Assembly: GCA_014728015.1 (NCBI GenBank)
Contig: WJMI01000305.1
Span: 6,192-70,191 of the forward strand
Source of the DNA: Chitinivibrionales bacterium
GTDB lineage: Bacteria > Fibrobacterota > Chitinivibrionia > Chitinivibrionales > WJMI01
Reading direction: 5' to 3'
DNA: 64,000 bases
Positions 1 through 56,934 of the stretch are shown here, piece after piece. A program made the translations under genes and the position numbers. The notes under the pieces were generated by a model. The model did not search any database and was not told the DNA's origin. It saw nothing but the letters and a program-made list of their open reading frames with translations. Position 1 is the stretch's first letter. Each line of letters begins with the position of its first letter.

Positions 1-640
1 GAATAGTGACATCCTTGATAAGGATGCCGTGCGCATAACAGGCGACCAGCGCGTGCGAGTACAGATCTTCAAAGAGGCAGTCGCGCACGACACATTTGTG
101 CCCCCTGATATTGAGCGCGAGATATACCCGGTTGAATGTACACGCCTCGACCACCCATCCAGTCGATGTGTTAAGAACCACTTTGTGTTCGATTGAGTCC
201 CCTTCATTCCAGGTGAGCTCTTCGAACGCGAACCCGCGGATAGTGACCCAGTGGTTCCCGCTCTTGGCGCCGTTGTCATCGACACCGGCCCAGTCTGCCG
301 GAACAAAACCGATTTCCCTGATACCCGAGCCGTTGAGCACCGCGCCGTGCGGCTCTTCGGATTCGAAGACAATTGGAGCTTCCGGTGTGCCTTCACCGTG
401 GACCCGTACCCGTTCCTGGTAGACACCGGGCTTGACTGTCACGATGTCGCCGGGATTCAACGCGACCTCACCGGCTTTGCGAATCGTCTTGAGCGGCGCG
501 CCCAGGCTTCCGTCAGCTCCATCGTCGCCGTCCGGTGACACCCAGTAGTGAGCCGCGTGAACGGATGCGAGAACGCAGACCACCCACAAACCTGCCAGCC
601 CGACATATCTGCACAGAGAATTTCGCGTACACGGATTCAT
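1..640 (-). CDS. Secreted right-handed parallel beta-helix protein, type 1 (DUF1565-like N-terminus); 3' part lies outside the window
   Basis: Absent from the ORF track because it runs off the left edge. My translation of the reverse strand from the ATG at 640-638 gives MNPCTRNSLCRYVGLAGLWVVCVLASVHAAHYWVSPDGDDGADGSLGAPLKTIRKAGEVALNPGDIVTVKPGVYQERV... This is a signal peptide followed by the Y.VS..G.D...GS...P..TI..A...PGD.I.V..G.Y start shared with the 5423-7711 protein. A G-run SD (AAAGGGGGGAAAC) lies directly upstream. Confidence 0.7.
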   Translation of the reverse strand, partial: MNPCTRNSLCRYVGLAGLWVVCVLASVHAAHYWVSPDGDDGADGSLGAPLKTIRKAGEVALNPGDIVTVKPGVYQERVRVHGEGTPEAPIVFESEEPHGAVLNGSGIREIGFVPADWAGVDDNGAKSGNHWVTIRGFAFEELTWNEGDSIEHKVVLNTSTGWVVEACTFNRVYLALNIRGHKCVVRDCLFEDLYSHALVACYAHGILIKDVTI

Positions 641-774
641 GTTTCCCCCCTTTGGCGGTAGTTTTGGTTCTAGGCAGAAGATAGGCATAAGGGTTGCATT
701 TCTCAGATATTCATGATATCTTAGAACCGCAGAAATGCACATCTGTCAGCCCATGTGTTGAAAGGAGGCTGGTC

Positions 775-2295
775 TTGGGGCATGCCACAAATGCAGCAGA
801 GGCAGCGGAACGGCTTCGGGCGCGGCTTGGGCCGGGCAACGCGGGGCGTATTCCGACAGCTCGAGAACTCGCCAGGGAGTTCCATATTGCCGAGCGGACG
901 GCGCTGAAGGCACTCCGGCAGTTGCGCGACGAAGGCCTGCTTGAGTTTTCCCGCGGCAAGCGGCCGCGCGCGGCCGGGACACGCAGTGCGCACAAAGATA
1001 CCGCTGCCGGCCGGTTGTTCGAGGACCTGAAACAGGCCATTGTGAAAGGCGCGTACCGTGCCGGTCATATCATGCCTAAGCTTGACTACTTTGTCATCGG
1101 CGAGCATGCTTCGCGCAGCACGGTATCCGAAGCATTCAGAATGCTTGAGCGTGAAGCTCTGGCGCACAAGCGGGGGCGCCAGTGGGTGGTGGGGCCGGGA
1201 CCTGATCATAGGGCATCGCCGTTCGATGCGGCACAACCCAGAGGGGATCGGCCGGTTGTCGTGATGCTCGTTCCGGTACAGAAGGTATGGGAAGACCTGC
1301 TCAACGAGCACCTTCGGCCGTTTCTCTCCGAGTTTCTGGCGGAGCTCGGGCGCCGCCGCCTGGATTTCGTGCTGTGCCAGCGAGAGAACCCCTTGCCGCA
1401 CCGAAGCATTTTCCCGACGGGCCGGGATGAGACCGCGGCCTTGATTCGCGAGCTTGGCAGGCGGTATGCGGGAACGCTTATTGTGACCCAGCCATACAGA
1501 TTTCCCGATCTTGGGGACTGGATTGAGCAGCTTGCCGGGTTCGGACGTCCGGTGCTCTGGTTTGACTATGACGATTCCGGGCCGGCAATGGACCGCCGCG
1601 CCGTCGGCTTCGATCAGTTTTACAGGTGTTTCTGCAATGAATCCCGATGTGTGTCGCTGGCGCTTGAGTCGCTCTCCCGGTTCGGGCATGCCAGGGTGGC
1701 CGTGCCCGTATGCGAAACGCTCGCGCGCGACGAATGGTACACGCATCGGGTTGATCTTCTGCGCGAGATGAGCGGGCATCTCGAGAAGCCGGTTGACATC
1801 ATCACGGTCGATCAGGATGAGCCCGTGTGGGAGAGCATACGCACGCTTGAGGGCCACTATGTGACGTCACGGCGAATAGACGATCTGTACGTTGAGCGGC
1901 GGAAATCGAACGTAAAGCTCAGTGATGCGGCAATCGGCCGTCTCGTACGAGATGCTCTTCTCGAGGAGTTCCCTTCACTTGCATCGCTGCCAGAGCTGGA
2001 TGAGATAACCGCGGTGTTTGCCGCCAACCAGTCGCTTGCGGTCAATTATGTCATATGGTTCGATGCCGTGGGTGTCAGGATCCCGCGCGATATATCGCTT
2101 CTGGCGATAGACAATTACCTGCGCGCTGCCGTGTTTCCGGTTTCGACAATCGCGCAGAATTTCGAAGGGCTTGCCTACAGCATGTCCCACGTGTTCATCG
2201 GTGATATCCCGGTAAACGCGGACAAGCGGGGCAACATGCCGAGCGAGCCGGAATTCGTTGATCGCGGGTCGCTCGGCCGGCCGCCGCGCGGCTAG
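775..2295 (+). CDS. Transcriptional regulator, paralog 1: two tandem GntR-type winged-helix domains plus LacI/PBP1-like sensor domain
   Basis: ORF 694-2295. wHTH1: IPTARELAREFHIAERTALKALRQLRDEGLLEFSRGKRP. wHTH2: MPKLDYFVIGEHASRSTVSEAFRMLEREALAHKRGRQWVVG. C-terminal LacI-like signature: AANQSLAVNYVIWFDAVGVRIPRDISLLAIDNY. I prefer the in-frame TTG at 775, preceded by AAAGGAGG, over the TTG at 694; the start is uncertain. Confidence 0.75.
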   Translation: MGHATNAAEAAERLRARLGPGNAGRIPTARELAREFHIAERTALKALRQLRDEGLLEFSRGKRPRAAGTRSAHKDTAAGRLFEDLKQAIVKGAYRAGHIMPKLDYFVIGEHASRSTVSEAFRMLEREALAHKRGRQWVVGPGPDHRASPFDAAQPRGDRPVVVMLVPVQKVWEDLLNEHLRPFLSEFLAELGRRRLDFVLCQRENPLPHRSIFPTGRDETAALIRELGRRYAGTLIVTQPYRFPDLGDWIEQLAGFGRPVLWFDYDDSGPAMDRRAVGFDQFYRCFCNESRCVSLALESLSRFGHARVAVPVCETLARDEWYTHRVDLLREMSGHLEKPVDIITVDQDEPVWESIRTLEGHYVTSRRIDDLYVERRKSNVKLSDAAIGRLVRDALLEEFPSLASLPELDEITAVFAANQSLAVNYVIWFDAVGVRIPRDISLLAIDNYLRAAVFPVSTIAQNFEGLAYSMSHVFIGDIPVNADKRGNMPSEPEFVDRGSLGRPPRG

Positions 2296-5177
2296 GGCCA
2301 CACGATTCGCTTCACCACCTGCCGCGTGGCAGACCGTGCTCGGACCACGTAGGTGCCTGCGGCGATACCCCGGGAGTGCATATCCAGCGCCGCTGTCCCG
2401 GCACGCGGCAGGAGTTCCAAATCGAGCAACCTTTTTCCTGCAAGTGAATAGACGTTCACCCGCACGCGCCGCGTGCTGTTTGACTTCAGAACAAGCCTGC
2501 CGTTTACAACTCCTATCACGAGCCCTTCTGTGCCCGTCCGGGGGGCCGGTCCGAGCCCGTATCGGGAGGCGTTCTGGGTTTTGTCGTATCCTGCGGGCAG
2601 AGGATAGTCCAGCTCCACGCCTGTGGGATTGCCTGGCGTGGCATCGAGATCGGGCCAGACCAGCGTGCCCAGCTTCTCCTGGTCCTGTTTGTCAAAATTG
2701 TACACGCCATGTTCGTTTGCGTTGGCATCCAGCCACAGCGTGACCTTGCGCAGCTCCTCGCCGGTAAGCGTACAATCATGGTGGCTGCCGTCGACATTCT
2801 GATACAATGGGGAACAATAGGTCCCGAATTTGTAGGGCACCGTGCGCGAGCCGCCATACCAGGGGATCACGAAGTTGAACCGCTGGCTTCCGTGGTAGAA
2901 GAACAGGTACGACGACCGTTTGTCGGGCATGGTGCCGATGGGACAGGCGATTTCCTTTCCAGCCCAATATGAACTGGTGACATTTCCCCACTCTTCGTAG
3001 CCGTTGAGTGCATACCAGTAGTGGATCTCATGTCCGTTGTTGGGACCGCCGCCGGTCGAGCTGTGGCACGGATCGCATTTGGCCTCGAAAATAGGCTGGA
3101 CGGTCCGATAGAATGAGAGCGGCTCCTGGCTTCCGGGCTCCTTCTCCAGCGGTGACGGCGCTCTTCGGAAGGCCAGGGGGTTGGAGCCCATGGGCGGGGG
3201 CGCTTCCCATTTACTCTCGTGACACCCGACACAGGTCAACTGCTCGCCCGGGTGCACGTATGTAATCGATCGCATGGAGTGAATGGCAATGCCGTTTTCG
3301 TCGAGGAGTTGGAAATATATCGGCTTGCCGACGGGCGCCTCGCAGTACACGCTGCCGTCTTCCTCGACCGGTACGACGCCCATTGACATGCGGCACAAGC
3401 TTTCGTGGCCGGCGCCGGTGCGCGGGCTGTCCTTGCCGAATGTCGACTTCGCGAAGAACTGGAGAATCCGCATCCATTTCGCCCTGGCGCCTTCGGGAAG
3501 GGGCATGTCCGAGACATACACGTTCTGCACGGCAATGGTGGCGCGCTTGTGGTCGGCGTGATCGGCCCGATCGCCCTGAAACGTACGGGTGGGGATCGCG
3601 GGTGGTTTCTGGCGCGCCCGCAGCGGGATCGGATCGAGCGGTCTGGTGCCGAGCGAAATATCGATACGGACCTCGTTGCCGAACTTGTCGAGCAGTTCGA
3701 GGTCGTCGTAGTGATTGCACAGGTAGAATTCCTCGGAGAGCGGCCACAGGGTGGCCCAGCCCGGCCACCGGTCGCCGCCGAGCCATTCGGCCTCGGGGAA
3801 CCAGGCCCCGGTCATGCGCTTGACCTGCGACATGCGGTCGTCATCCTTGATTGTCACATCGATAAGTATCGGCGCGCCGTATGCCTGGCCGTGATGCGGG
3901 CCGGCGGTGGCCGTATACTTGCCGCTCGTGCCGGGTATCGCGCGGATGTTGAACTCGGCGAACGGACGCTCCTGCCTTCCGTCAATCCATATCTCGCCGT
4001 CGATATCGTTGTTGGCGGCGAACACGGTGTCGGTGGTGGTCCAGGGGTGGGGGTAGTTGCCGTGCGGCGCGCGCGGATCGCGGCCGTCGGGATAGCAGGT
4101 CCACATGTGGTGAGCAATGCAGTCTTCGCGGTCAACATAGTCCCATCGCGAATACACGATCATACCGTCATTGTCGACCGATGGGTGCCATTCGTTAGTT
4201 TCGTGGAAGCTCAAGCAGATGATATCAGAGCCGTCATCTTTCATGGAGTACAGCGAGTAGGTGGGGTACGGCTCGCTGTGGCACCGGCCGAACCCGCCGC
4301 GCCGCGTGGTATTGAACACGATGCGGCCATTGGGGAGAAAGCACGGGTCGAAGTCATCATACGGGCCGTCGGTGAGCATCATCAGATTGGATCCGTCAAT
4401 GCCGCACTTGAAGAGGTGATAACAGTCGTTTTCGTTCCACCCCGAGCCGCCGCCGCGCGCCCAGGCAAACACAATGGTCTCTCCGTCATACGAAAGATCC
4501 GGTGACAGAAATGCGCCGCCGTTGAGAGACTGGCCGGCCAGCCGTCCGTTCTGGACCGTGGCGCCTTCGAGGACATTGTCCACGCGGGGATTGTCGGCAA
4601 AAGCATTGCGAAGGATGTACAGCCCTCCGCCGCCCGTGCTCTTGTAGCCGTAATACTGCGGGCACATGTGGCCGCACTCGGTCGCGGTTGACACAAAAAG
4701 AAGATCGTCGAAATCGAGAAGCGGATTGGAAACGGCGATCCGGCGCCGCAGGGCGCAGGCCTCCGCGAACAGGTTCCGTTCGACTGCGGTGCCTGTTTTG
4801 GCGAGGCCGAGCCGGTCTCGCGCGGCGCGCAATTCGGCCAGGCGACTACGAAAGGTATCCGCCCTCTTGCGCAGGCCGTCTGTTGACTGAAGGTGTCTGA
4901 GCAGTGCATCGGTGCGCCTCAAGACGACATCAACCGGAGTTCGGTCCGTCTCATGAAGCAGGGCGTGGGGGTCGAGAATGTCCCGTTCGACTTTCCATCG
5001 ATGGGGCGACTTCCCGAGCTTGTGGAGACTTTCGAGCCGTCCGGAAAGCTCAGCATACTCGGTATCCCACCGGGCCCGCACCGACTTGCTGTAGTTGGTT
5101 GATGTGCGTGACCCGGCGAATGGCAGAGATGCGGCTATTATGGTCAGATAGAGCGATATGACAACAGCCAATCGCAT
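2292..5177 (-). CDS. HzsA-related / PD40-like beta-propeller protein with two CxxCH haem c motifs and a T9SS C-terminal domain
   Basis: 961-aa ORF with signal peptide. Propeller motifs: FLSPDLSYDGETIVF, DFDPCFLPNGRIVF, HETNEWHPSVDNDGMIVYSRWDY. Haem motifs: LTCVGCHESKWE and a PSCyt1-like VQPIFEAKCDPCHSS. Tail: VYSLAGKRLLDLEL...GIAAGTYVVRARSATRQVVKRIVWP. Paralog of 54211-56934. SD: AAAAGGGGGAATGCGC. Confidence 0.65.
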   Translation of the reverse strand: MRLAVVISLYLTIIAASLPFAGSRTSTNYSKSVRARWDTEYAELSGRLESLHKLGKSPHRWKVERDILDPHALLHETDRTPVDVVLRRTDALLRHLQSTDGLRKRADTFRSRLAELRAARDRLGLAKTGTAVERNLFAEACALRRRIAVSNPLLDFDDLLFVSTATECGHMCPQYYGYKSTGGGGLYILRNAFADNPRVDNVLEGATVQNGRLAGQSLNGGAFLSPDLSYDGETIVFAWARGGGSGWNENDCYHLFKCGIDGSNLMMLTDGPYDDFDPCFLPNGRIVFNTTRRGGFGRCHSEPYPTYSLYSMKDDGSDIICLSFHETNEWHPSVDNDGMIVYSRWDYVDREDCIAHHMWTCYPDGRDPRAPHGNYPHPWTTTDTVFAANNDIDGEIWIDGRQERPFAEFNIRAIPGTSGKYTATAGPHHGQAYGAPILIDVTIKDDDRMSQVKRMTGAWFPEAEWLGGDRWPGWATLWPLSEEFYLCNHYDDLELLDKFGNEVRIDISLGTRPLDPIPLRARQKPPAIPTRTFQGDRADHADHKRATIAVQNVYVSDMPLPEGARAKWMRILQFFAKSTFGKDSPRTGAGHESLCRMSMGVVPVEEDGSVYCEAPVGKPIYFQLLDENGIAIHSMRSITYVHPGEQLTCVGCHESKWEAPPPMGSNPLAFRRAPSPLEKEPGSQEPLSFYRTVQPIFEAKCDPCHSSTGGGPNNGHEIHYWYALNGYEEWGNVTSSYWAGKEIACPIGTMPDKRSSYLFFYHGSQRFNFVIPWYGGSRTVPYKFGTYCSPLYQNVDGSHHDCTLTGEELRKVTLWLDANANEHGVYNFDKQDQEKLGTLVWPDLDATPGNPTGVELDYPLPAGYDKTQNASRYGLGPAPRTGTEGLVIGVVNGRLVLKSNSTRRVRVNVYSLAGKRLLDLELLPRAGTAALDMHSRGIAAGTYVVRARSATRQVVKRIVWP

Positions 5178-5422: not shown

Positions 5423-7711
5423 CTACCGGCAGATCATTACACGCCGGCAAACGGTATATGCACCTGCGGCGACTGACACCAGGTAGTACCCGGTAGGCAC
5501 CATGGTACGATTCACGAGGTACCGCCGGGAGCCGCTCCCGCGGACACGGTGCACAAGCCGTCCATTCAGGGAGAACAGGTCGACCCGGTGTGCCCCTTCG
5601 GCAGCTACGTTGACCAGCGCGCGTCCGGCCACTGCGCTCACGTGAAGCGGCATGGCGGTTCGCAGAAGGACCGGTGACAGGGCCACGGCATTGCCGCTCG
5701 AAGGACCTTCGTAGAATTCTATTTCGGCGACATTGAGATAGCCGCACTCGCCGCCGGCATTGCTGTTGTACCGGACATAGGCGGCTTCAAGCGGATCGTC
5801 GATGGTAACCGTGGTCATCTCGCCGTCGGCAGGCACGGATTCGATCGTATAGATGCTGGTCCAGTCGGTGCCGTTGGCCGAGACCTCGAATGTCCTTCCG
5901 ACCATGCGCTCACCGAAGCCGTCGCGTGGGCAGAACGAGATTTCAACAATGGTCTTGGGCTGGTCGAACCGGAACCCCGCCCAGAGCTCGTCGGCTTCAT
6001 GGCAATCGGGGTAGGTGGTGATGTCGCCGTCGAATGCGGCCCAGGGTCCTTCGCAGAAGTCGAGCGGTTCGCCTTCGGAGATAAAATGGCCGGTAGCCTT
6101 GCGCTTTGCTACAATCTCAATCTGCGTGGATGCGCTTTTGGCCGTGCCGTCCATACTGGCATCCGCGGTGACCGTAACCGTTCCCTCGGTGTTTCCCGCG
6201 GTAAACATTCCGTCGTTATCCACTTCGCCGTCAGCGCCGGTTGCCGACCAGGTGAACGCGGGCTGCGTTGGCATGGCAAGGAAATACTGGTCGCGCGCCG
6301 TTGCCCACAACTGAAGTGTCTCGCCGTAAAGGAGCGTGCGGCCGGCCGGAGTGACAGTCATCGAGGTAAACACCGGGGGCTCGGGGTCGCCGGTTTCCCA
6401 GCTTGACGATATAGAACCGGAGTGCGTGCTGTTGAGCTCCACGTTGAAATCGCTCTGGATGCTTGCCAGGCCGGTGCGACTGTTGGGACCCCAGGTAACC
6501 GTGGGCTCGCTGCCCTCCCAGGTGTTATAGTCCCAATCGAAGCTTCGCGTGCTTGCCATGCTGGTTGTCCAGGTCTCGGCTCCCAGGGACGTTCGAATCT
6601 CGCCATTCTGGTAGACGTTATGCTTCAGTGTCAGGTTCTCGATATCGCTGTTGAGCGCGGGTTCGCCGTCACGGACAGGCGCCTCGCGCTCCATGTCCCG
6701 AAGCTCGAACGATCCGTTGATCAGCGTATGCATAATAGTGACATTCTTGCTTTCGCACACCGCAATCTCGGAGCCGTCATTGTCGTGGGAGTAACAGTAT
6801 TCGAGTGTCAGCGGGCCGGTGGGATTGACTTCCCAGAACACCCCTGAGCCTTCCCAGTTGTAGGCCATGCCCTTGTTGTTGCGAAACTCGCTGTTGCGTA
6901 CGACCACGTTGCGGTTGTCCCAGTCGAACCACAGGCCGGGCCCGTGGTTGTCGTAGGCCTGGTGGTTTTCTATGAGGAGCGGGCCTTCATAGTTATTGCA
7001 CCATTTGCCGCCGCCGCCGGAGAACCCGCCCGGTACGTGGTATTTTCCGCCGATATTGTGGAAAGAGCCTTCCTTTTCCGGAAAGGGATTGTAGTCCCAG
7101 CCGCAGTTGTTGTTGCGGGAGATACAGTTCCGCACGACCACATCGCGGCATTTTCCGCCACCGATACCGCCGGCGAAGTTGTACTCGGTGATAACATCTT
7201 CGACAAGGCAATGATCGACGTCCTCGAGCACAATGCCGTCCCAGTGCGATTCCTTGGTGAGGATATTGCGCACGGTCCACCCGCGGCTTCCGCCGGCAAT
7301 GCGTACTTGCGAGTTGTTGAAAAAGCACGCGCCGCGGCGAAATGTCATGTCTTCGAGGGTAACATAGCTTGCGCCCCATGATGCGAACAGGTGACGCATG
7401 GTGGTATCGAATTCGCCGTCGATAATGACCCCGGCGCGGCTTTCGCCCTTGATCACGATCGGATTGTCGGCAGTACCCGAATTGGCCGACCAGAAGATAA
7501 TGGTCTGGTTGTAGGTGCCGGTACGAACCGTGATGACATCCCCGGGCTTGGCCAGGTCCACCGCTTTCTGGATGGTAGCGAATGGCGCGCCGGAGCTGCC
7601 GTCGTTGGTGTCGTCGCCGGATGTTGCTATGAAATAGTCGGCCGCGAATGTGCCGGCAGCGAGAAATACGCATGCCAGCGCGGCATGGATAGTTGCGCGA
7701 AGCGTTCTCAT
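5423..7711 (-). CDS. Secreted beta-helix protein type 1 with Big_2, F5/8 type C (discoidin) and T9SS C-terminal domains
   Basis: 762 aa. Signal peptide, then ADYFIATSGDDTNDGSSGAPFATIQKAVDLAKPGDVITVRTGTYNQ and beta-helix repeats (NCISRNNNCGW, HQAYDNHGPGLWFDWDN). Big_2-like: VTPAGRTLLYGETLQLWATARDQ... Discoidin-like: AAFDGDITTY...VSANGTDWTSIY...AEIEFY. Tail: LFSLNGRLVHRV...TGYYLVSVAAGAYTVCRRVMICR. Confidence 0.75.
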   Translation of the reverse strand: MRTLRATIHAALACVFLAAGTFAADYFIATSGDDTNDGSSGAPFATIQKAVDLAKPGDVITVRTGTYNQTIIFWSANSGTADNPIVIKGESRAGVIIDGEFDTTMRHLFASWGASYVTLEDMTFRRGACFFNNSQVRIAGGSRGWTVRNILTKESHWDGIVLEDVDHCLVEDVITEYNFAGGIGGGKCRDVVVRNCISRNNNCGWDYNPFPEKEGSFHNIGGKYHVPGGFSGGGGKWCNNYEGPLLIENHQAYDNHGPGLWFDWDNRNVVVRNSEFRNNKGMAYNWEGSGVFWEVNPTGPLTLEYCYSHDNDGSEIAVCESKNVTIMHTLINGSFELRDMEREAPVRDGEPALNSDIENLTLKHNVYQNGEIRTSLGAETWTTSMASTRSFDWDYNTWEGSEPTVTWGPNSRTGLASIQSDFNVELNSTHSGSISSSWETGDPEPPVFTSMTVTPAGRTLLYGETLQLWATARDQYFLAMPTQPAFTWSATGADGEVDNDGMFTAGNTEGTVTVTADASMDGTAKSASTQIEIVAKRKATGHFISEGEPLDFCEGPWAAFDGDITTYPDCHEADELWAGFRFDQPKTIVEISFCPRDGFGERMVGRTFEVSANGTDWTSIYTIESVPADGEMTTVTIDDPLEAAYVRYNSNAGGECGYLNVAEIEFYEGPSSGNAVALSPVLLRTAMPLHVSAVAGRALVNVAAEGAHRVDLFSLNGRLVHRVRGSGSRRYLVNRTMVPTGYYLVSVAAGAYTVCRRVMICR

Positions 7712-9335: not shown

Positions 9336-9469
9336 AGGATCCCCCCTTCCTGTTGGTCTGCTGTTGCCGGGAAGTGTACCCCAAATCGTCTGTCCAGACA
9401 ACCTACCGAGCGGACCATGTTGTTGCACTTTTCGGACAATCTGCCGCAAGAATGGGTATATTAGTTTGC

Positions 9470-10524: not shown

Positions 10525-10597
10525 AAAAAAACCGAATCAGCCCTCGTTGCTACTCAGGCTGATCCGGCGTGCGAGAAAAGGGGGAACCTTCTCGTTT
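10525..10597 (-). terminator. Rho-independent terminator plus upstream hairpin (73-nt conserved element, copy 1) behind 10643-12193
   Basis: Minus-strand reading: CGAGAA-loop-TTCTCG, then CCGGATCAGCC-loop-GGCTGATTCGG followed by U7. 71 of 73 nt are identical to 12720-12792. Confidence 0.75.
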
Positions 10598-12719: not shown

Positions 12720-12792
12720 AAAAAAACCGGATCAGCCCTCGTTGTTACTCAGGCTGATCCGGCGTGCGAGAAAAGGGGGAACCTTCTCGTTT
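12720..12792 (-). terminator. Rho-independent terminator plus upstream hairpin (73-nt conserved element, copy 2) behind 12837-14132
   Basis: Minus-strand reading: CCGGATCAGCC-TGAGTAACAACGAGG-GGCTGATCCGG followed by U7-8. Preceded by the CGAGAA...TTCTCG hairpin. Confidence 0.8.
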
Positions 12793-38604: not shown

Positions 38605-38674
38605 CATGCATTGAGCCGCACTTGAGGCAATACTATGTGCCAGGGGCAGTAATTCATATCCGTTGGGGGCTCTT

Positions 38675-43540: not shown

Positions 43541-43561
43541 AAACCATAAGAGAGTTTTATC

Positions 43562-45481: not shown

Positions 45482-45737
45482 TCCTATGGACGATGAAGCT
45501 CGAAATTCAGAACATGATAGGGGCACGTGTGCGGATTGCGGATCGGGGAGCCGCACACGGGCCCTTCCATGTCTTTGAGCGGCAGCGACTTGTGTCCTAA
45601 TTGGCCGAGCAACAACAGCCACAACAACCTTCTGGAGACGTTCTACACAGATGTGGACCGATATATTGCTTTGAGAGGCATTTCACAATCTGCCTGCCGT
45701 CTTCTTGCGGCAAAATTATTGACCGGGGGGAACTCGT

Positions 45738-48386: not shown

Positions 48387-48442
48387 AAACGAGCACTAAC
48401 GCTACCCCGCCCGGCCGGCCGAAGCCGCGGGGCCCTCAGCAT

Positions 48443-48480
48443 TGATTTGTCCCGGAGATTATTTACTAGTTTACCTCCGG
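48443..48480 (+). repeat. Exact 38-bp repeat, copy 1 (TGATTTGTCCCGGAGATTATTTACTAGTTTACCTCCGG)
   Basis: Identical to 53928-53965 in the same orientation. It contains the CCGGAG-N17-CTCCGG inverted repeat. Lies between the stop of 45738-48386 and the stop of the regulator 48502-50061. Confidence 0.9.
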
Positions 48481-48501
48481 AGTAAATATGGAGTACGACA
48501 G

Positions 48502-50201: not shown

Positions 50202-51746
50202 ATGCGCATACGACTCAATTTCGCCGCGTTGTCAATACTGCTCGTCGTGTCAGGTATCTTGGCAAGGGACACTGTGTATCTCTATCCTGGCAATCCGTTT
50301 CGCGATTCGGTTCAGGCATATCCCGAGAGCACAACGTTCATTGTCAAGGAAGGCACCCATTACCAGCCCCGCATATGGCCAAAGACCGGTGATCATTTCA
50401 TCGGGGAGGACGGTGCTGTCATGGATGGTGGAGACACCGCCTATCATGCGATAGTCGGCAACCAGACCGTCGATGACATTGTCATCCGTAATATCCGGTT
50501 CCTCAACTACGGCTCCGCTCCGCGGCTGTGTGTTATCACTGCCCGGGCCGATGCGTACAACGGCGCCCGCTGGACCATTGAAAACTGCGAGTTTGGATAC
50601 TGCAACGGCGGTGCCATCATGATAGGCGACAGTTTCGAGGTTCGCGGCAATTACATACATCACATGGGCCAGATTGGGCTTCTGGGGGGCGCAACCGGCT
50701 CGCTGGTCGAGAACAACGAGATTGCTTTCTGCAACTATGAAATGGAGAACTCGTTCATTTTCGAGGCAGGGGGCGCGAAATTTGCGTATGCGACCAATCT
50801 GATCGTACGCGGTAACTATGTCCACGACAATTTCGGCCCTGGTTTGTGGACCGATATCGACAACATGAATATCCTGTACGAGGGCAATATCATCGAGGAC
50901 AACCTGCAGTTCGGCATCTTTCACGAAATCAGCTATGATGCAGTCATCCGATGCAATGTGATTCGTAACAACGGTGCGGCGCATGACTCACTCGTGTGGT
51001 GGATGAAGCCCGGGCAGATAAAGATCGCCAACTCCCAAAACACCGAAATCTGTCATAATATCATCGAAGTGCATCCGAGCTTTGGCGATGGGATTGCCTT
51101 GTCAAATGCGGTTCGCGGAGAAGACTGGTACTGCAGAGATAATAGCGTGCACCACAACCATATCATCCACAAGGGAAAAAACGCGTCGTACAGCGGCATC
51201 AACGGCGTGGAGTCCGAATGGCACGAGGAGTTCGAGAACCTGTATACCCAGGCCGATAACCGGTTCGATGCCAACTATTATCATGTGCCTGATGACACCA
51301 CCCGCTACTGGTTCTGGCGCGGGACACGCTGGGACCATACGGGCAACGGGTTTCGCACATTCGAGGAATTCCAGGCGATGGGCCAGGAGCAACACGGCAT
51401 TATTGACCACGACACGGGCGGCAGTTACGCCTGCGCGCCGTGCCAGGACCTCGTTGACCGGATAGAAACGGCGCGCAAGATTTGCCCGGGAAGGATCGCG
51501 CAGCAGGGTTTGCGTGTCGGCGCGACCGCGCGGGACGGAAACTGTGTTGTTAAAATAACCGGCAACTGCGCGCCGCCGGTCGAAATCTGCATTCACGATG
51601 CCCGGGGAAGGCGCGTATCGCGAATTCTTGTCGGCCATGAGGTACAACGCATCGTGGTTCCGACATCATCTTTGGGCCGGGGCATGTACCTGGTCCGCGC
51701 GCATGCATCGGGAATGACTGCTGTCACCACGTTCGTGGTGCGGTAA
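50202..51746 (+). CDS. Secreted beta-helix protein type 2, minimal form (catalytic core plus T9SS C-terminal domain; copy 3)
   Basis: FIGEDGAVMDGGD, NIRFLNY, VRGNYIHHMGQIG, VRGNYVHDNFGPGLWTDIDNMNILYEGNIIEDNLQFGIFHEISYDAVIRCNVIRNNG. Tail: IHDARGRRVSRIL...GRGMYLVRAHASGMTAVTTFVVR. Start at the ATG at 50202. Confidence 0.7.
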   Translation: MRIRLNFAALSILLVVSGILARDTVYLYPGNPFRDSVQAYPESTTFIVKEGTHYQPRIWPKTGDHFIGEDGAVMDGGDTAYHAIVGNQTVDDIVIRNIRFLNYGSAPRLCVITARADAYNGARWTIENCEFGYCNGGAIMIGDSFEVRGNYIHHMGQIGLLGGATGSLVENNEIAFCNYEMENSFIFEAGGAKFAYATNLIVRGNYVHDNFGPGLWTDIDNMNILYEGNIIEDNLQFGIFHEISYDAVIRCNVIRNNGAAHDSLVWWMKPGQIKIANSQNTEICHNIIEVHPSFGDGIALSNAVRGEDWYCRDNSVHHNHIIHKGKNASYSGINGVESEWHEEFENLYTQADNRFDANYYHVPDDTTRYWFWRGTRWDHTGNGFRTFEEFQAMGQEQHGIIDHDTGGSYACAPCQDLVDRIETARKICPGRIAQQGLRVGATARDGNCVVKITGNCAPPVEICIHDARGRRVSRILVGHEVQRIVVPTSSLGRGMYLVRAHASGMTAVTTFVVR

Positions 51747-51781
51747 TACCAAACAAGCAACGGCCGTTCAGGGAGGACGCA

Positions 51782-53803
51782 ATGTACTGGACAGGCAACG
51801 CACTGGTATTGACAGCTCTTGCGCTTTTCTGGCTCGCGTGGGGAGCACAGGGGCTGGAAGGTATGCTCTTGGGATATTATCCCGACACCGATCAGGACGG
51901 CGTTGTCGATACCAATGCCTGCCCCGGCTATATCAGCCAGGAGAACGCGGGGGCGTTGTTCGTGTATTTCCTGGGCACGGGACACAAGGTGTATGTCGAG
52001 GAGGACGGCGTTCTCAGCGGTAGTTTTTCCCCCGACGGCAGCCGGATTGCATACCAGAAAGCGAACCAGGTGTGGGTATGCGACGTTGACGGGAACAACA
52101 GGCAGGCGGTGACAGCGTGCGGCACCGGCGATGCGGTCACCTGGGGAAGCGACTACATTTACTGGAGCGAGTTGACCAGTGCTGTGTACCAGGTCAAGGA
52201 GGACGGCAGCGAGCGGGGCGTGCTCCACGATTTCGGCCAAACCGTGTACAAGGCCGGCGTTTCGCAGGATGGCACCCATGTGTCGGGGTTTGCCATGCCC
52301 GGCCCCTGGATAATTGCGTGGGACAGCGCCACGAATACGACATCGAATGTGGCCTGCTGCAATTTCGGCGGGGGGTGCCGGGGGACATTTTCCCCTGACG
52401 GGTCGATGGTTACGCGTAACCGGTCGAACCACAACGACTGGGACATCATCGCCTATTCGCCCGGCGATCCTATCAACGGGTGGCCCGGCATCCAGCACAT
52501 CGATAACATCAATTGGGAGCCGTGCGCCGGCCGTACGGACGGCAAGGCGACATTCAACATGCATCGCTTTTCGACCAAGTCGAATGATTTCGTTGTGTTA
52601 ACGGGCGAAGGGGCCAACAGCGCATACGTATACCAGCTGTCCACACGGCAGTTTCACTATATCTGCCGCGGCATCGCGCTCGATTTCTGTCCGTTTTCCC
52701 CGTTCAACTCCGTTCCTGCGCCCGCCTTTGCGCCGCAGCAGGGGACTTTTGCCGATGCGATTGATGTGACGATTACCGGGACCGGCACGATTCGCTATAC
52801 CACCGATGCCAGCGATCCGACTGACATGTCGCTGCCGTACGCCGGGCCTGTTCATCTGACTGCAACCACCACGATCAAGGCGCGGTGTTTCAGCGGTGAT
52901 GACCAAAGCTCTATCGCATCGAAGACCTATACCAAAGCCGCTGCCGGCGCGCAATTGACTGCTATCCAGCTTGCGCCCGCGACAATGGATGTGGCAGGCG
53001 GCGGGCGGGTGCATTATACAGCAACCGCACTCGATCAGAATGGCGCGGAAATGCAGGATGTGTCTTTCACGTGGAGTGTCGATGGCGGGGGGACTATTGA
53101 TACCGCCGGTCTGCTGAAGGCCGGTATGATGGAAGGCGGTCCGTATACGGTACGTGTCTCTTCGGGCGGGGTTCACGCATCCGCGACATTCTCGGTGCAG
53201 GGCACTATCTGTCTTATTGAGCCGCAGGCGGCCGCACGCTATCGCGAGGGTGACACGATGCATGTCCGCTGGGAATGGACCGGCGCGGATACATATCCCG
53301 GCGGCGTGGTGGTGAGCTTCTCAAATGACGGCGGCTTGAGCCTGCACGATATCACGGGGACCAACAGCATTGCTTCCGGCGATGCGGCCTGGGGAGATCT
53401 GACCTGGGTGATAGGCCAGGGGCTTCCCGATGGTGTGTCCGTGCAAACACAAAAAGGTGTTGTGCAAATCGGCCGGTATGCCGCAACCGGCCTTGCATGG
53501 AACGGAACCACAAGCGAGCCGTTCACAGTACTGGCCAAGGATGCCGCAACGATCCCCTCCCCGCCCAGCAAATCCAGCCGCGCGGCCATACGAGCGGTTC
53601 GTGATGCGTTGCTGGTGACGATACCCTATCGAGGCTATTTGGAAATCGAGGTGAATGATACAAGGGGTCGTCGGGTCTTTTGCGAGGCCGTACGAGGCGC
53701 GGGAACGCGGCGCATTGAGAAGCGGTTGGCCCCGGGCGCATGGATGGTGTGTGTGCGCATCGACGGCCGATGCCTGACGAGCGCGCTCATAACCGCGCGA
53801 TAG
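51782..53803 (+). CDS. Secreted TolB/PD40-like propeller / CHB_HEX_C-like / Big_2 protein with T9SS C-terminal domain (propeller family P, copy 3)
   Basis: GSFSPDGSRIAYQKANQVWVCDVDGNNRQAVT. CHB_HEX_C-like: FAPQQGTFADAIDVTITGTGTIRYTTDASDPT...TTIKARCF. Big_2-like: TATALDQNGAEMQDVSFTWSV. Tail: IEVNDTRGRRVFCE...PGAWMVCVRIDGRCLTSALITAR. Confidence 0.55.
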   Translation: MYWTGNALVLTALALFWLAWGAQGLEGMLLGYYPDTDQDGVVDTNACPGYISQENAGALFVYFLGTGHKVYVEEDGVLSGSFSPDGSRIAYQKANQVWVCDVDGNNRQAVTACGTGDAVTWGSDYIYWSELTSAVYQVKEDGSERGVLHDFGQTVYKAGVSQDGTHVSGFAMPGPWIIAWDSATNTTSNVACCNFGGGCRGTFSPDGSMVTRNRSNHNDWDIIAYSPGDPINGWPGIQHIDNINWEPCAGRTDGKATFNMHRFSTKSNDFVVLTGEGANSAYVYQLSTRQFHYICRGIALDFCPFSPFNSVPAPAFAPQQGTFADAIDVTITGTGTIRYTTDASDPTDMSLPYAGPVHLTATTTIKARCFSGDDQSSIASKTYTKAAAGAQLTAIQLAPATMDVAGGGRVHYTATALDQNGAEMQDVSFTWSVDGGGTIDTAGLLKAGMMEGGPYTVRVSSGGVHASATFSVQGTICLIEPQAAARYREGDTMHVRWEWTGADTYPGGVVVSFSNDGGLSLHDITGTNSIASGDAAWGDLTWVIGQGLPDGVSVQTQKGVVQIGRYAATGLAWNGTTSEPFTVLAKDAATIPSPPSKSSRAAIRAVRDALLVTIPYRGYLEIEVNDTRGRRVFCEAVRGAGTRRIEKRLAPGAWMVCVRIDGRCLTSALITAR

Positions 53804-53927
53804 GTGCAGCCCAACGCCGACCTCAAATGAATACAGTATCTCCGGCGTCAATAACCTGATTGTCCCCCGGTGATTCCCCAGGGCAGTTTGCCGTCTCCAG
53901 CGAACTGCGGAAACGGGCCGAAACTAC

Positions 53928-53965
53928 TGATTTGTCCCGGAGATTATTTACTAGTTTACCTCCGG
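53928..53965 (+). repeat. Exact 38-bp repeat, copy 2
   Basis: Identical to 48443-48480. A degenerate partial copy (CTGATTGTCCCCCGGTGATT) lies 70 nt upstream at 53856-53875. Confidence 0.9.
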
Positions 53966-54210
53966 TTTAAATTCCCGCCCCAAAAAAATAGGACTTCTCT
54001 GAAGTTCCATACTCCGCCCGACTCCATGAGAAAATTGTATAATTCGATCAGAGGATCATATCTGCTTGATACGCCCGAATCCCAGTATATTGGGTTCTTG
54101 GGGAGACCGGTATTGACAAGAATTTCTCCGACAGGGGGTGCTTCGGAGTAACAACTGAAATAGCAACATAAGTTATGCGCTTAAATCGCGAGGTAAGAAG
54201 GGGGAACTTC

Positions 54211-56934
54211 ATGACCAAGTCGAACAGCGCTATATTTCTCATTTCAGTGCTTGCATTGAATATGGCGGCATCGGGTGGCTTGTGCCGTCGTGCTTCGTCG
54301 TTTCCGCAAAATGTTGTTCAGAAGTGGCAGGAGCAGTACAGCGACATTGATGGGCAGATTGCCGCCACGAACAGCCTGGGCAAAAGACGTGACAATGCTT
54401 TCGGCAAAATGGCAAGCCGGCATGCGCTGGTCCTTGCCGGGGATCGCGATCCCGCCGATGTAGTCCTTCGCCGCACCGGGGCCCTCATGGAGAGCCTCAA
54501 GCGCCTTGAGGACTGTCCTGATCTTTCGGCGTTTGAATCCCGCCTCGAGCAGCTCCGCAGTCAGAACCGCGGCGGTCTCGCCAAGGCTTCGGCGGCCGCG
54601 CGTGAGGCATTGTACCTCGAGGCATGCGCCCTTCGGCGGCAGATTGCCATCTCCAATCCGCTCCTCGATTTCAACGATGTGCTGTATGTCGAGCGGGCGC
54701 TGTGCGGCAACTGGGAAGAGACAGGCCATCACTGCTGCGACCAGTTCCACAATTTCACCAATGCGCCGGGCGGATGGGTGTACATCATGAAAGATGCGTT
54801 CAGTGACAATCCCCAGCGCGCAAACCTTCTTCAAAACGCGGTCGTCGAAAACGGGCAGTTTGAGGGGCAGAGGCTGGTCGACCTGACAGGCAAGTGCCTG
54901 AGCCCGGAGCTGTCCTTTGACGGCCAGACCGTGCTGTTCGCATTTGCGGAGGGCGGCTGCAAGAACAACAATCACATCAAATTCGGGCTGCCGCCGCACG
55001 AGCATTTCTGGAATGACCAGAACTGCTGGCACATTTTCAAAATCAACATTGACGGCACCGGTCTGCGTCAGTTGACATTCGGCCCGTATGACGATTTCGA
55101 CCCGTGTTTTCTTCCCAACGGCCGCATCACGTTCATATCAAACCGTCGCGAAGGGTATGGCCGCTGCCACTTCCGTCTGGTGCCTACCTATACCCTGTAT
55201 TCCATGAAAGACGACGGCAGTGATATCATCTGCCTGAGCTTCCATGAAACCAACGAGTGGCATCCCTCGGTGAACAACGACGGCATGATTGTGTATACGA
55301 GATGGGATTATATCGATCGCCCGGATTTGGCCTCGCACCATATCTGGACCTGTTACCCTGACGGGCGCGATCCGCGGGCCCCGCACGGCAACTACCCCGA
55401 GCCGTATGCCACGCATGTCGACGGCGGGTGGGGTGACACGTTCCGGAAACGGCCCAATGGGGAATACAATATCAAGGCCATTCCCGGGACCGCGAGCAAG
55501 TATACGGCTACCGCCGGACCGCACCACGGCGAGTCGTACGGATGTCCTGTCATACTCGATATTGCTATCGAAGATGACAATTGTATGTCGCAGATCACCA
55601 AGATAGTCGACGTTGGTTTTCCCGAATCGGAAGTGGGGGGAACGGTCGGCGGAAGCTACGGGACCGTTTGGCCGTTGTCCGAAGAGTTTTTCCTGTGCAA
55701 CAGGGACGGCGGGCTGGCGCTTCTGGACATTCACGGTAATGTAGAATACTTCGGCGGCGGCCATACCATGCGGCCGGTCGATCCTATTCCGGTCAAGGCG
55801 CGCACCAAGCCGCCCGTCATACCCGTGCAGACCTGGCAGGGGGAACGGGAAGGCGCTCCGGACCACCAGCGCGCCGTCATCAGCGTCATGAATATCAATG
55901 TCGCCGATTACCCGCTTCCGGACAATGCGGAGATCACACACATGCGCATCATCCAGGCCTTTCCGCATTCGCAGCCGTTCAGTGTGTATGCGGGACATGG
56001 GGAGCACTCGCAGGGGCGCATGCCGATTGGCACGGTGCCGGTCGAGGAAGACGGGAGCGTGTATTGCGAAGCGCCGGTGGGCAAACAGATATACTTCCAG
56101 CTTCTGGATGAAAAAGGCCATGCGATCGCATCCATGCGTTCCGGCACGTATGTGCATCCCGGCGAGCATCTGACGTGCGTTGGCTGTCACGAAAGCAAGT
56201 GGGAATCACCTCCGCCCATGACATCGACCCCGCTTGCGCTCCGCCGCGAGCCGTCGCCTATTGAGCCCGAAGTCGGTGGCGTGAATCCGATCGGGTTCGA
56301 CCTGGTCCAGCCGATTATTCAGAGCAAGCTTTCGGGAACGTTTTCCTCAAACTATCATGATCTGGAGCCCATAATATTCTATCTCGAAAGCGGCATCTAC
56401 TGGATGCAGTACCAGCACGGCGGGTCGCGCACGATCCCGGGTCGTTTCGGCGCCCTCGAATCCGGCATGCTTAAGACGATAAACGGCATGAACCACAATC
56501 TCACCGACGAGGAATACCGCAAGATTGTGCTGTGGCTCGACTGTAATTCCAACGAGTTCGGTCTGGCACGCAACGGGGGCTATCACCCGCAGGCCTATCT
56601 TATGGACTACGACGAGAATAATCCCTCGGGAGTCGAGTATGACCGGCCCGCGCGCGGCTCAACGACCATCAAGCTCCAGCGCTTCGCGCCATCCGGGGAA
56701 CCGCATATTCGAGTAACAAACCGAATGCTCACGGTGAACAGCGGAGCGAATGAAGGGGCGGATCTGGCGGTCTACGATCTGAGCGGGCGCGTGGTGTTGC
56801 GGCGCCGGCTGGGACACGGTACCTCTTGCATCGATCTCGGGGCGCAGGGAGTTGCCGCGGGAAGCTACGTGGTCAGGCTTACGGATGCCAAGCAGCGGAC
56901 CCTGCAAAGCAGGCGGATTGTTGCGGCGCGTTAG
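54211..56934 (+). CDS. HzsA-related / PD40-like beta-propeller protein with one CxxCH motif and a T9SS C-terminal domain (paralog 2)
   Basis: Collinear with 2292-5177: DFDPCFLPNGRITF, HETNEWHPSVNNDGMIVYTRWDY, VPVEEDGSVYCEAPVGKQIYFQLLDEKG, LTCVGCHESKWESPPP. Tail: LAVYDLSGRVVLRRR...AAGSYVVRLTDAKQRTLQSRRIVAAR. Start at the ATG at 54211, after GAAGGGGGAACTTC. Confidence 0.65.
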   Translation: MTKSNSAIFLISVLALNMAASGGLCRRASSFPQNVVQKWQEQYSDIDGQIAATNSLGKRRDNAFGKMASRHALVLAGDRDPADVVLRRTGALMESLKRLEDCPDLSAFESRLEQLRSQNRGGLAKASAAAREALYLEACALRRQIAISNPLLDFNDVLYVERALCGNWEETGHHCCDQFHNFTNAPGGWVYIMKDAFSDNPQRANLLQNAVVENGQFEGQRLVDLTGKCLSPELSFDGQTVLFAFAEGGCKNNNHIKFGLPPHEHFWNDQNCWHIFKINIDGTGLRQLTFGPYDDFDPCFLPNGRITFISNRREGYGRCHFRLVPTYTLYSMKDDGSDIICLSFHETNEWHPSVNNDGMIVYTRWDYIDRPDLASHHIWTCYPDGRDPRAPHGNYPEPYATHVDGGWGDTFRKRPNGEYNIKAIPGTASKYTATAGPHHGESYGCPVILDIAIEDDNCMSQITKIVDVGFPESEVGGTVGGSYGTVWPLSEEFFLCNRDGGLALLDIHGNVEYFGGGHTMRPVDPIPVKARTKPPVIPVQTWQGEREGAPDHQRAVISVMNINVADYPLPDNAEITHMRIIQAFPHSQPFSVYAGHGEHSQGRMPIGTVPVEEDGSVYCEAPVGKQIYFQLLDEKGHAIASMRSGTYVHPGEHLTCVGCHESKWESPPPMTSTPLALRREPSPIEPEVGGVNPIGFDLVQPIIQSKLSGTFSSNYHDLEPIIFYLESGIYWMQYQHGGSRTIPGRFGALESGMLKTINGMNHNLTDEEYRKIVLWLDCNSNEFGLARNGGYHPQAYLMDYDENNPSGVEYDRPARGSTTIKLQRFAPSGEPHIRVTNRMLTVNSGANEGADLAVYDLSGRVVLRRRLGHGTSCIDLGAQGVAAGSYVVRLTDAKQRTLQSRRIVAAR

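Follow-up and report, generated by a model that had tools for sequence, protein, structure and literature searches.

Positions 6,192 to 70,191 of contig WJMI01000305.1 (assembly GCA_014728015.1), the 64,000-nucleotide stretch analysed here as the window, come from an uncultured member of the Chitinivibrionales in the phylum Fibrobacterota, according to the NCBI annotation. We find that this window is most probably a Fibrobacterota stretch of carbohydrate-active enzymes (CAZymes) organised as several small regulons, whose products are mostly type IX secretion system (T9SS) cargo, and that a separate hydrazine synthase (HZS)-like module lies at its right end. A first-pass annotation had described positions 1-56934 as one modular, paralog-rich glycan-degradation super-locus, its enzymes almost all T9SS cargo and its gene content devoid of SusC/SusD or other transporters, and had proposed it as an undescribed system. 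Most of what was observed stands, and chance comes nowhere near explaining it. The claim of an undescribed system is not borne out: the same design has been published for Fibrobacterota (PMC6851124, PMC4704652, PMC4814513), and T9SS-cargo CAZymes without SusC/SusD are therefore the expected state in this lineage.

Evidence for T9SS export comes from the C-termini of the secreted proteins, 21 of which can be aligned over about 85 aa each. The alignment contains a single invariant glycine within an 'L.G(R/K)' motif as well as a 'G.Y..R' motif, and its last strand is basic. One tail-bearing gene, 57263-58057, falls outside positions 1-56934, and a search of the six-frame translation of the window with a hidden Markov model (HMM) of the tails recovered no others. 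All tails but one are strongly basic (pI 10-12), and every tail-bearing open reading frame (ORF) begins with a basic n-region followed by a hydrophobic h-region, constituting a Sec signal peptide as judged by inspection and a hydropathy scan rather than SignalP. When searched on their own, 14 of the 21 tails matched PF18962 and 15 matched TIGR04183 at E<=1 (best 9e-8). When the whole set of PDB sequences was searched with the tail profile, solved T9SS C-terminal domains (CTDs) were retrieved at E-values from 6.5e-5 to 0.05, including those of F. johnsoniae NucA (6.5e-5) and RemA, P. gingivalis RgpB (1.8e-3), mirolase, PorZ, and HBP35; the top match was an NHL repeat protein, whose similarity was confined to a short strand motif, 'v.d..G', that is repeated in it. 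In RgpB, the glycine of the 'FDMNGRR' loop in the L-beta3-beta4 motif is needed for secretion, and the type A CTD motif is defined by a glycine at the start of beta4 together with a basic residue in the last strand (PMC11285876). The invariant glycine of our alignment aligns with this essential residue, and arginine or lysine is present in the last strand. Moreover, an AlphaFold2 (AF2) model of the 22309-24162 protein, the one tail modelled, places seven strands in aa 512-585 as a C-terminal sandwich. That protein is 100% identical to the NCBI hypothetical protein GF418_13390 (its paralog in the window is GF418_13380), and NCBI names a homolog of it 'T9SS type A sorting domain-containing protein'. 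Two further window proteins were traced to the same 81,035-bp NCBI contig.

To guard against circularity, we scored every tail with an HMM rebuilt without that tail and its paralogs. Fifteen tails were still recovered at E<1e-4, and three were marginal (31014-32210, E 0.028; 37170-38471, E 0.068; 38675-40498, E 0.007). The earlier count of about 21 type A tails thus divides into 15 well-supported, three probable, and three doubtful ones. Judged by this homology, most of the secreted enzymes carry a predicted T9SS type A sorting domain; two GH63-like enzymes and the 16136-17581 protein have no CTD.

The reported lack of transporters was confirmed. The window has a G+C content of ~59%, from which many spurious ORFs are expected, and we retained those with the expected third-position G+C excess (GC3), moving several start codons to the first methionine preceding a signal peptide. 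The resulting gene calls account for 91% of positions 1-56934, with a biggest gap of 647 nt, and the gaps are too small to conceal a transporter gene. Pfam searches of every GC3-supported ORF in this region revealed no TonB-dependent receptor, SusD, ABC, MFS, or PTS protein, and the families that would mark a Bacteroidota polysaccharide utilization locus (PUL), TonB_dep_Rec, Plug, and SusD, had no match on any ORF. Scans of the window for tRNAs and Rfam families were likewise without a match. Fibrobacterota are placed in the FCB superphylum, and SusC/SusD loci are a feature of Bacteroidota; given that the window belongs to Fibrobacterota, the absence of SusC/SusD reads as unremarkable and a matter of lineage. 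A locus that looks anomalous as a Bacteroidota PUL is thus the normal Fibrobacterota layout for secreted CAZymes, and the missing SusC/SusD pair is no discovery.

Published work on this phylum provides close counterparts. In F. succinogenes, most lignocellulose-degrading enzymes end in a basic domain, known as BTD (basic terminal domain) or Fpm-1, that overlaps TIGR04183 and has been proposed as a T9SS signal, and proteomics found the BTD absent from mature Fibrobacter proteins (PMC6851124). An ~80-aa basic terminal domain is widespread in the cellulases of all Fibrobacteres (PMC4704652), and in Chitinispirillum, where CAZyme paralogs have also expanded, a signal peptide with a Por domain denotes the cell surface and a signal peptide alone the periplasm (PMC4814513). 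T9SS is also listed for the phyla of the FCB superphylum, including Fibrobacterota (PMC11285876, PMC11205867). The window shares with these systems (BTD/Fpm-1 proteins of Fibrobacter; Por-domain hydrolases of Chitinispirillum and Chitinivibrio) the phylum, the lack of SusC/SusD loci, periplasmic partners without the domain, and expanded CAZyme paralogs (PMC6851124, PMC4704652, PMC4814513). It differs in its enzymes: the published cases concern cellulases and chitinases of glycoside hydrolase (GH) families GH5/9/18/19/20, and the window instead has GH30-like and GH63-like enzymes, beta-helix proteins of two families, a new family of beta-supersandwich proteins, and proteins with a nucleoside-hydrolase fold. 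It also differs in the tight clustering of these genes with tandem-GntR regulators that carry a periplasmic binding protein (PBP) domain, an arrangement of which the literature considered here gives no description.

Comparison with Bacteroidota PULs shows a similar mixture of likeness and difference. Clustered CAZymes, local sugar-responsive regulators, and a split between surface and periplasm are common to both, whereas the window belongs to another phylum, has no SusC/SusD, and would place enzymes at the surface through T9SS CTDs rather than as lipoproteins. Its regulators are GntR/LacI hybrids and AraC-family proteins, and unlike in PULs no hybrid two-component system, SusR, or extracytoplasmic function sigma/anti-sigma pair turned up. 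To our knowledge, the T9SS cellulase systems of Cytophaga hutchinsonii and 'Ca. Paraporphyromonas polyenzymogenes' lie outside SusC/SusD loci. In the parts of the two reports considered here, their cellulolytic enzymes are linked to T9SS, which resembles the predicted export of CAZymes in the window, but these systems differ in phylum, in enzyme families, and in having cellulose as their target (PMC11611037, PMC5831590).

To assess the claimed redundancy, we compared all window proteins with each other by BLASTP, which found the members related to one another in nine of the eleven repeat families proposed. These comprise the DUF1565 beta-helices ('type 1', 2-745 and 5423-7711; 28% identity, E 4e-15), three beta-helix type 2 proteins (28199-30943, 45738-48386, and 50202-51746; E 1e-53 to 0), three GH63/MGH1-like proteins (26125-28134, 32414-34774, and 43562-45481; 43-50% identity), two GH30-like proteins (46%), two HzsA-related proteins (2292-5177 and 54175-56934; 46%), two nucleoside-hydrolase-fold proteins (8085-9335 and 31014-32210; 45%), the 'CBM-like' pair (10643-12193 and 12837-14132), a 400-aa family (24810-26015 and 42353-43540; 41%), and four regulators with tandem winged helix-turn-helix (wHTH) domains. 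The last proved to be GntR+GntR+LacI-type PBP proteins, three of which share 34-36% identity while 14595-16073 aligns at its two ends only. For the 'CBM-like' pair the paralogy is clear (46% identity), and the label itself goes back to sub-threshold GH115_C and Golvesin_C matches with no PDB match, including an empty PDB sequence search for 10643-12193. Of the two remaining families, the TolB-like propellers number two rather than three (38675-40498 and 51782-53803, E 1e-8 over ~430 aa), as 20649-22103 and 37170-38471 are marginal (E 0.007-0.09), and the two AraC proteins have the helix-turn-helix domain in common but differ in effector domain (cupin/AraC_binding versus GyrI-like).

In addition to these families, a three-gene cassette occurs twice in identical order (24810-30943 and 42353-48386), each copy encoding a 400-aa beta-supersandwich protein, a GH63-like enzyme lacking the tail, and a type 2 beta-helix enzyme, with 41%, 50%, and 38% protein identity gene by gene (BLASTP). 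Given that paralogs in the window are 31-50% identical in protein and 60-83% identical in nucleotide sequence over short patches only, the duplications are old, and a recent duplication as their origin was rejected on the same nucleotide comparison. We read positions 1 to ~54 kb as a stretch rich in CAZymes that arose through ancient duplication of genes and segments.

The first-pass annotation had suggested AlphaFold and Foldseek for the families without assignment, and for the 400-aa family this was informative. The model of 42353-43540 (aa 30-305, pLDDT 90.9) has its best PDB matches among galactose-mutarotase-like beta-supersandwiches, at a modest TM-score of ~0.45-0.5; these matches include GH38 domains, aldose-epimerase-like proteins, and rhamnogalacturonan lyases of polysaccharide lyase (PL) families PL4 and PL26. 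An exhaustive HMMER search of 1.84 billion proteins with the tail removed recovered 225 representative relatives, which often form the N-terminal part of large secreted proteins and are fused to CBM6/35, InlB B-repeats, FG-GAP, Ig-like, or laminin-G domains. One relative adjoins an MGH1-like GH gene (JGI 3300042731 contig). Others stand in tandem, as three genes at locus L083 (10001-15819) and two at L084 (1159-2705), and one tandem set of three sits inside a cluster of glycosyltransferase, ABC-2, and NDP-sugar genes. Members of the family thus often occur in several copies and in association with glycan metabolism. Charged residues are conserved in the family, and a role in carbohydrate binding or cleavage is plausible. 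A separate homology search with the 400-aa protein or regulator 4 returned the query only; it missed even the paralogs in the window and is thus uninformative on rarity. Two less likely readings may be put forward tentatively: that the cassette represents new CAZyme families acting jointly on a glycan without a known enzyme set, such as a mat exopolysaccharide, and, separately, that c-type-haem HZS-alpha-like proteins are exported by T9SS in Chitinivibrionales. Under the first, the rare supersandwich family would count as a new family of lyases or hydrolases; under the second, the haem proteins would be an unusual class of T9SS cargo.

The enzymatic identity of the other secreted proteins could be established to varying degrees. 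The designation 'GH30-like' is correct at the level of fold. The two paralogs have no Pfam, NCBIfam, or single-sequence PDB match, so that sequence alone does not assign them to the family. A profile of 11 homologs nonetheless matches AcXbh30A (7n6h, 1.2e-4) and an endo-beta-1,6-galactanase (24td, 3e-4), and distant homologs give a weak match to PF02057 (GH59). The AF2 model of the 22309-24162 protein (pLDDT 81.8) shows the (beta/alpha)8 barrel with beta-sandwich side domain that is expected of GH30, and its top 45 Foldseek matches are all GH30 or GH59 (E 3.5e-23, target TM-score 0.70-0.78). Within the alignment of 11 homologs, an 'NEPN' motif (E130, conserved in >=90%) and an invariant 'PE' (E178) are inferred as the positions of the catalytic acid/base and nucleophile. 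We therefore regard the pair, on the strength of the model, as having a GH30-like fold rather than as demonstrated GH30 family members.

The three GH63-like proteins match PF22422 well above its cut-off of 27 bits (85.7, 103.5, and 92.1 bits), as expected of GH63/MGH1-like enzymes, and two of them match PF03200 (53 and 29.4 bits). They also match MGH1-like, trehalase, and GH63 models and, weakly, that of the YgjK alpha-glucosidase; a PDB sequence search and a metagenome scan with the GH63-like alignment found nothing. Because 26125-28134 and 43562-45481 have a signal peptide and no CTD, they are predicted to be periplasmic. Among the beta-helix proteins, 5423-7711 contains a domain matching the C. 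thermocellum CBM62 structures 2yb7/5g56 (E 3e-18) and an N-terminal part with weak GH120 and PL9 matches, and the type 2 proteins have no family-level match, including in a PDB sequence search. The nucleoside-hydrolase-like protein 31014-32210 likewise has no PDB sequence match.

A broken GH27 alpha-galactosidase gene is also present, either as a pseudogene or as an assembly error. Pfam and three-frame reading detect Melibiase_2 positions 1-101 only, with Melibiase_C and the Por tail elsewhere, and the motifs 'GFQFGIYTTCG' and 'VEILTNRDLIAINQD' lie ~25 codons apart in different frames, with the catalytic region among the ~150 aa lost. Together with the GH30/GH59-like fold and the CBM62-like module, this remnant hints at galactose-containing material. 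We nevertheless agree with the earlier view that the target glycan cannot be deduced, as no substrate can be named from the domain and fold evidence.

The arrangement of the regulators bears on whether these genes form one system. All six neighbour cargo genes, and five are transcribed divergently from them: regulator 1 from the left-edge beta-helix gene, regulator 2 from 12837-14132, regulator 3 from the second cassette, regulator 4 from 50202-53803, and the AraC/GyrI-like regulator from 37170-40498. Given that each of the six lies next to cargo genes, the arrangement suggests several small regulons, and the description of a single super-locus is not supported.

The analysis shows which domains the proteins contain, how they are related as paralogs, the homology of their CTDs, their folds, and the annotated lineage; the secretion route, the substrates, and the division of labour between surface and periplasm are inferred. 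Most enzymes, which have a signal peptide for Sec and a basic type A CTD for T9SS, would pass the inner membrane through Sec, fold in the periplasm, and then be carried by T9SS to the surface or the medium. Outside the cell, the GH30-like enzymes, the PA14-GH63-like enzyme, and the five beta-helix enzymes (one with a galactose-type CBM62-like module) would cleave one or more complex glycans. The two CTD-less GH63-like enzymes would finish imported oligosaccharides in the periplasm, the regulators may sense the released sugars, and genes for uptake across the outer and inner membranes would lie elsewhere in the genome.

The right-hand boundary at 56934 is not a natural one, as it cuts a conserved HZS-like module. 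The 'HzsA-related propellers' that had been counted with the glycan-degrading set are not evident glycan enzymes: the CXXCH of the HZS-alpha haem domain is kept, and one of the two belongs to an alpha plus beta-gamma pair. From 54175 to 62536 on the plus strand, the gene order is alpha-like, small CTD protein, beta-gamma-like, a 449-aa protein, RidA-like, and ResB (cytochrome c biogenesis). The beta-gamma-like protein 58054-59949 matches 5c2v_B (E 2.6e-25, aa 52-394) and 5c2v_C (E 1.3e-15, aa 415-569), and the window thus contains a co-localised HZS-like alpha and fused beta-gamma pair, with the two genes 1.1 kb apart. The 449-aa protein ends in an aromatic residue, as outer-membrane beta-barrels typically do, and could be a channel.

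We gathered 80 loci from many phyla by a contig search with 58054-59949 (best ~50% identical), followed by tblastn with all window proteins. In 31 of the 80, all in other phyla (Planctomycetota, Verrucomicrobiota, Kiritimatiellales, Lentisphaerae, Hydrogenedentota, Armatimonadota, Omnitrophota, and Terriglobales), the 58054-59949 homolog has an HzsA-like gene as a same-strand neighbour at a distance of no more than a few kb, and in 14 of these 31 a RidA-like gene follows directly downstream. The 54175-56934 gene is therefore better read, from this conserved context, as the probable first gene of a separate haem-protein module extending to ~62.5 kb than clearly as a glycan enzyme.

A co-localised alpha and fused beta-gamma pair in non-anammox bacteria, with alpha upstream, was published in December 2025; in the sections of that report considered here, the function of these homologs is given as unknown and their key catalytic residues as not conserved (PMC12758564). 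HZS proper is recognised by the Tyr591/Cys303 zinc site of alpha, His144 and Cys165 of gamma, and the anammox gene set, and nothing in the window suggests anammox. As in those sections, an HZS_alpha gene stands upstream of a fused propeller/di-haem gene with one gene between them, and the beta-gamma-like protein carries two CXXCH motifs without additional haems, like clade II (PMC12758564). The window differs from what these sections describe in its Fibrobacterota host, a phylum they do not name, in the T9SS CTD of the alpha-like protein, in an intervening gene that encodes a small CTD protein rather than FG-GAP/CRTAC1, and in a second alpha-like paralog 50 kb off, inverted and without a partner. 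What is new here is that the alpha-like proteins bear good predicted T9SS CTDs and the beta-gamma-like partner none. The two alpha-like paralogs are inverted and ~50 kb apart, flanking nearly all of the CAZyme region, and their genes share stretches of 72-82% nucleotide identity (3117-4439 versus 55009-56292).

Several points weigh against the reading of the window as a T9SS-exported CAZyme stretch with an adjoining haem-protein module. First, most tails score below the curated cut-offs: the 23 bits of TIGR04183 are reached by few (the 28199-30943 tail, 23.7; the 24810 gene, 25.1; the 54175 gene, 27.1 bits), and the 27 bits of PF18962 by no protein in whole-protein scans. Second, three tails fail the leave-one-out test (8085-9335, E 2.7; 10643-12193, E 6.2; and 12837-14132), and the T9SS route is read from the cargo genes of the window alone. 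Third, the supersandwich, beta-helix type 2, nucleoside-hydrolase-fold, 10643/12837, 20649, and 37170 proteins have no assignable activity, and for some of them a role in adhesion or as a scavenging enzyme, and not as a glycanase, is conceivable. Fourth, promoter and terminator consensus scans remained at background level and do not settle operon structure. Lastly, the presence of a CTD on the alpha-like protein and not on its presumed beta-gamma partner is left unexplained by the model.

In an alternative that we consider unlikely, much of the region would serve not polysaccharide degradation but surface and scavenging functions of a mat dweller, with beta-helix and propeller proteins as adhesins or surface-layer-like proteins, extracellular nucleoside hydrolases, and periplasmic GH63/MGH1-like enzymes acting on small glycosides such as compatible solutes (glucosylglycerate or mannosylglycerate, trehalose). 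The nucleoside-hydrolase fold is indeed present, and the GH63-like proteins match mannosylglycerate-hydrolase-like and trehalase models; the sugar-type PBP domains of the regulators, however, fit induction by carbohydrates. Polymer binding and cleavage are moreover indicated by the GH30 fold with its conserved candidate catalytic glutamates, the CBM62-like galactose-type module, PA14, CHB_HEX_C, the GH27 remnant, and the fusion of a supersandwich relative to CBM6/35, even though other supersandwich relatives lie in tandem in an exopolysaccharide-type cluster or are fused to InlB B-repeats, FG-GAP, and Ig-like domains, and the type 2 beta-helices match no family.

It is very unlikely that the region constitutes a single dedicated and undescribed system in which all depolymerisation is carried out extracellularly by T9SS cargo with no dedicated uptake, on a logic unlike that of PULs or Gram-positive clusters. 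The presence of ~18 CTD proteins and 11 repeated families in 57 kb without a transporter would agree with such a system, as would the several families lacking a Pfam, NCBIfam, or PDB match, but an identical architecture is the published norm in Fibrobacterota (PMC6851124, PMC4704652, PMC4814513). Furthermore, six separate local regulators favour several regulons, the old paralogs (38-50% protein identity) suggest that families have expanded, more than that a machine of many parts was designed, and the proposed locus takes in part of an unrelated conserved haem-protein module. Lastly, it is extremely improbable that the tails are a lineage-specific Ig-like or basic anchoring domain on proteins that are periplasmic or otherwise released without T9SS export, since, despite the scores below curated cut-offs, the three failures among 21, and the poor interchange of CTDs between species (PMC11285876), the tail profile matches validated CTDs (NucA, RgpB, RemA, mirolase, PorZ) and nothing else consistently, the tails are strictly C-terminal on signal-peptide proteins with the glycine motif and basic last strand conserved, NCBI applies the T9SS name to a homolog, and the Fibrobacter tails are removed (PMC6851124).

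With the window read as a Fibrobacterota CAZyme stretch beside an HZS-like module, the remaining interest lies in the rare supersandwich family with its high-confidence model, the unclassified beta-helix family in three copies, the putatively T9SS-tagged nucleoside-hydrolase-fold proteins (whose tails are marginal or unsupported), the tandem-GntR/LacI regulators paired with cargo, and a Fibrobacterota case of the HZS-like alpha/beta-gamma pair with a T9SS tail on the alpha-like subunit.

Table 1 Coordinates of features in the window, with the matches on which each assignment is based; tail E-values refer to the tail HMMs.
Position	Strand	Feature	Evidence
2-745	-	DUF1565 beta-helix protein, N-terminal part, runs off window	PF07602 E 1.3e-3
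694-2295	+	Regulator 1: tandem GntR wHTH + LacI-type PBP	PF00392 (2 stretches), PF13377; 34-36% to regulators 3, 4
2292-5177	-	HZS alpha-like: PD40 propeller, HZS_alpha middle domain, signal peptide, T9SS CTD	PF18582 E 1e-19; CXXCH aa 649, 701; tail E 1e-8
5423-7711	-	DUF1565 beta-helix enzyme + Big_2 + CBM62-like F5/8-type-C domain + T9SS CTD	Pfam; tail E 2e-13
8085-9335	-	Secreted nucleoside-hydrolase-fold protein, basic tail unsupported as CTD	PF01156 31.9 bits, under cut-off; signal peptide
9353-10252	+	AraC-family regulator, cupin-type effector	PF12833, PF02311
10643-12193	-	Secreted 'CBM-like' protein A, variant basic tail unsupported as CTD	Weak GH115_C; tail E 6.2
12837-14132	-	Secreted 'CBM-like' protein B, tail unsupported as CTD	46% identical to paralog A
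14595-16073	+	Regulator 2: tandem GntR wHTH + PBP	PF00392 (2 stretches), PF13377
16136-17581	+	Putative lipoprotein, CarboxypepD_reg-like + PKD-like, no CTD	Sub-threshold Pfam; N-terminus LAVSC suggests lipobox
18745-20640	+	GH30-like enzyme, paralog 1 + T9SS CTD	46% identical to 22309-24162; tail E 2.5e-8
20649-22103	+	Secreted protein + T9SS CTD	No Pfam match; TIGR04183 17 bits; tail E 7e-13
22309-24162	+	GH30-like enzyme, paralog 2 + T9SS CTD	GH30 profile match; AF2 model
24810-26015	+	Triad 1: beta-supersandwich + CTD	Tail E 5e-15 or 3e-15 (values of the two triad 1 tails)
26125-28134	+	Triad 1: periplasmic (predicted) GH63/MGH1-like, no CTD	Pfam
28199-30943	+	Triad 1: beta-helix type 2 + CTD	Tail E 5e-15 or 3e-15 (as above)
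31014-32210	+	Secreted nucleoside-hydrolase-fold protein, marginal CTD	PF01156 36.3 bits; tail E 0.028
32414-34774	+	PA14 + GH63/MGH1-like catalytic domain + T9SS CTD	PF07691, PF22422, PF03200; YgjK model 63.8 bits; tail E 2e-13
34842-35883	+	GH27 alpha-galactosidase pseudogene (or assembly error)	Frameshift + internal deletion ~150 aa; Melibiase_C and CTD readable
35958-36998	-	AraC-family regulator, GyrI-like effector	PF06445 E 2e-36, PF12833
37170-38471	+	Secreted protein, marginal CTD	No Pfam/NCBIfam match; signal peptide; tail E 0.068
38675-40498	+	TolB/PD40-like propeller + fn3, marginal CTD	fn3 E 4e-10; tail E 0.007
40588-42159	-	Regulator 3: GntR + PBP	PF13377 E 6e-19, PF00392
42353-43540	+	Triad 2: beta-supersandwich + CTD	AF2 model aa 30-305
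43562-45481	+	Triad 2: periplasmic (predicted) GH63/MGH1-like	Pfam
45738-48386	+	Triad 2: beta-helix type 2 + CTD	Pfam
48502-50061	-	Regulator 4: tandem GntR wHTH + PBP	PF13377 E 4e-21, PF00392; NCBI 'GntR family transcriptional regulator'
50202-51746	+	Beta-helix type 2, short form + T9SS CTD	PF13229 E 3e-17; 31% to other two; tail E 9e-7
51782-53803	+	TolB/PD40-like propeller + CHB_HEX_C/Fn3_assoc + T9SS CTD	TIGR02800 22 bits; tail E 4e-5
54175-56934	+	HZS alpha-like haem protein + T9SS CTD	PF18582 E 5e-20; PDB 5c2v_A; CVGCH (CXXCH) aa 668; TIGR04183 27.1 bits
57263-58057	+	Small secreted protein + T9SS CTD, between alpha-like and beta-gamma-like genes	PF18962 18.7 bits; tail E 1e-7
58054-59949	+	Fused HZS beta (propeller) + gamma (di-haem CCP/MauG-like) homolog, signal peptide, no CTD	CXXCH aa 438, 547
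59959-61308	+	449-aa protein, signal peptide, C-terminus '...ARVMFYF'	No Pfam/NCBIfam match

A 73-nt non-coding element occurs at 10525-10597 and 12720-12792, ~45 nt downstream of each 'CBM-like' gene, and its two copies are 97% identical, compared with 46% protein identity for the genes themselves. The element folds as a small hairpin followed by a strong intrinsic terminator (z -5.3 and -4.4), and the copies suggest gene conversion or a recently copied 3' end. A pentapeptide-repeat protein, apparently without a signal peptide, is encoded at 17578-18630 on the minus strand, between the regulator 2 operon and the long plus-strand run of enzyme genes. Lastly, a 58-nt AT-rich repeat is found at 48430-48487 and 53915-53972, with an exact 37-nt core (GATTTGTCCCGGAGATTATTTACTAGTTTACCTCCGG) and a palindrome (CTCCGGAG). 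A structured RNA was considered for this repeat and rejected from its z-scores (0.13 and -1.5). One copy lies in a convergent intergenic region and the other ~210 nt upstream of the HZS-alpha-like gene, and both are promoter-like on the minus strand.

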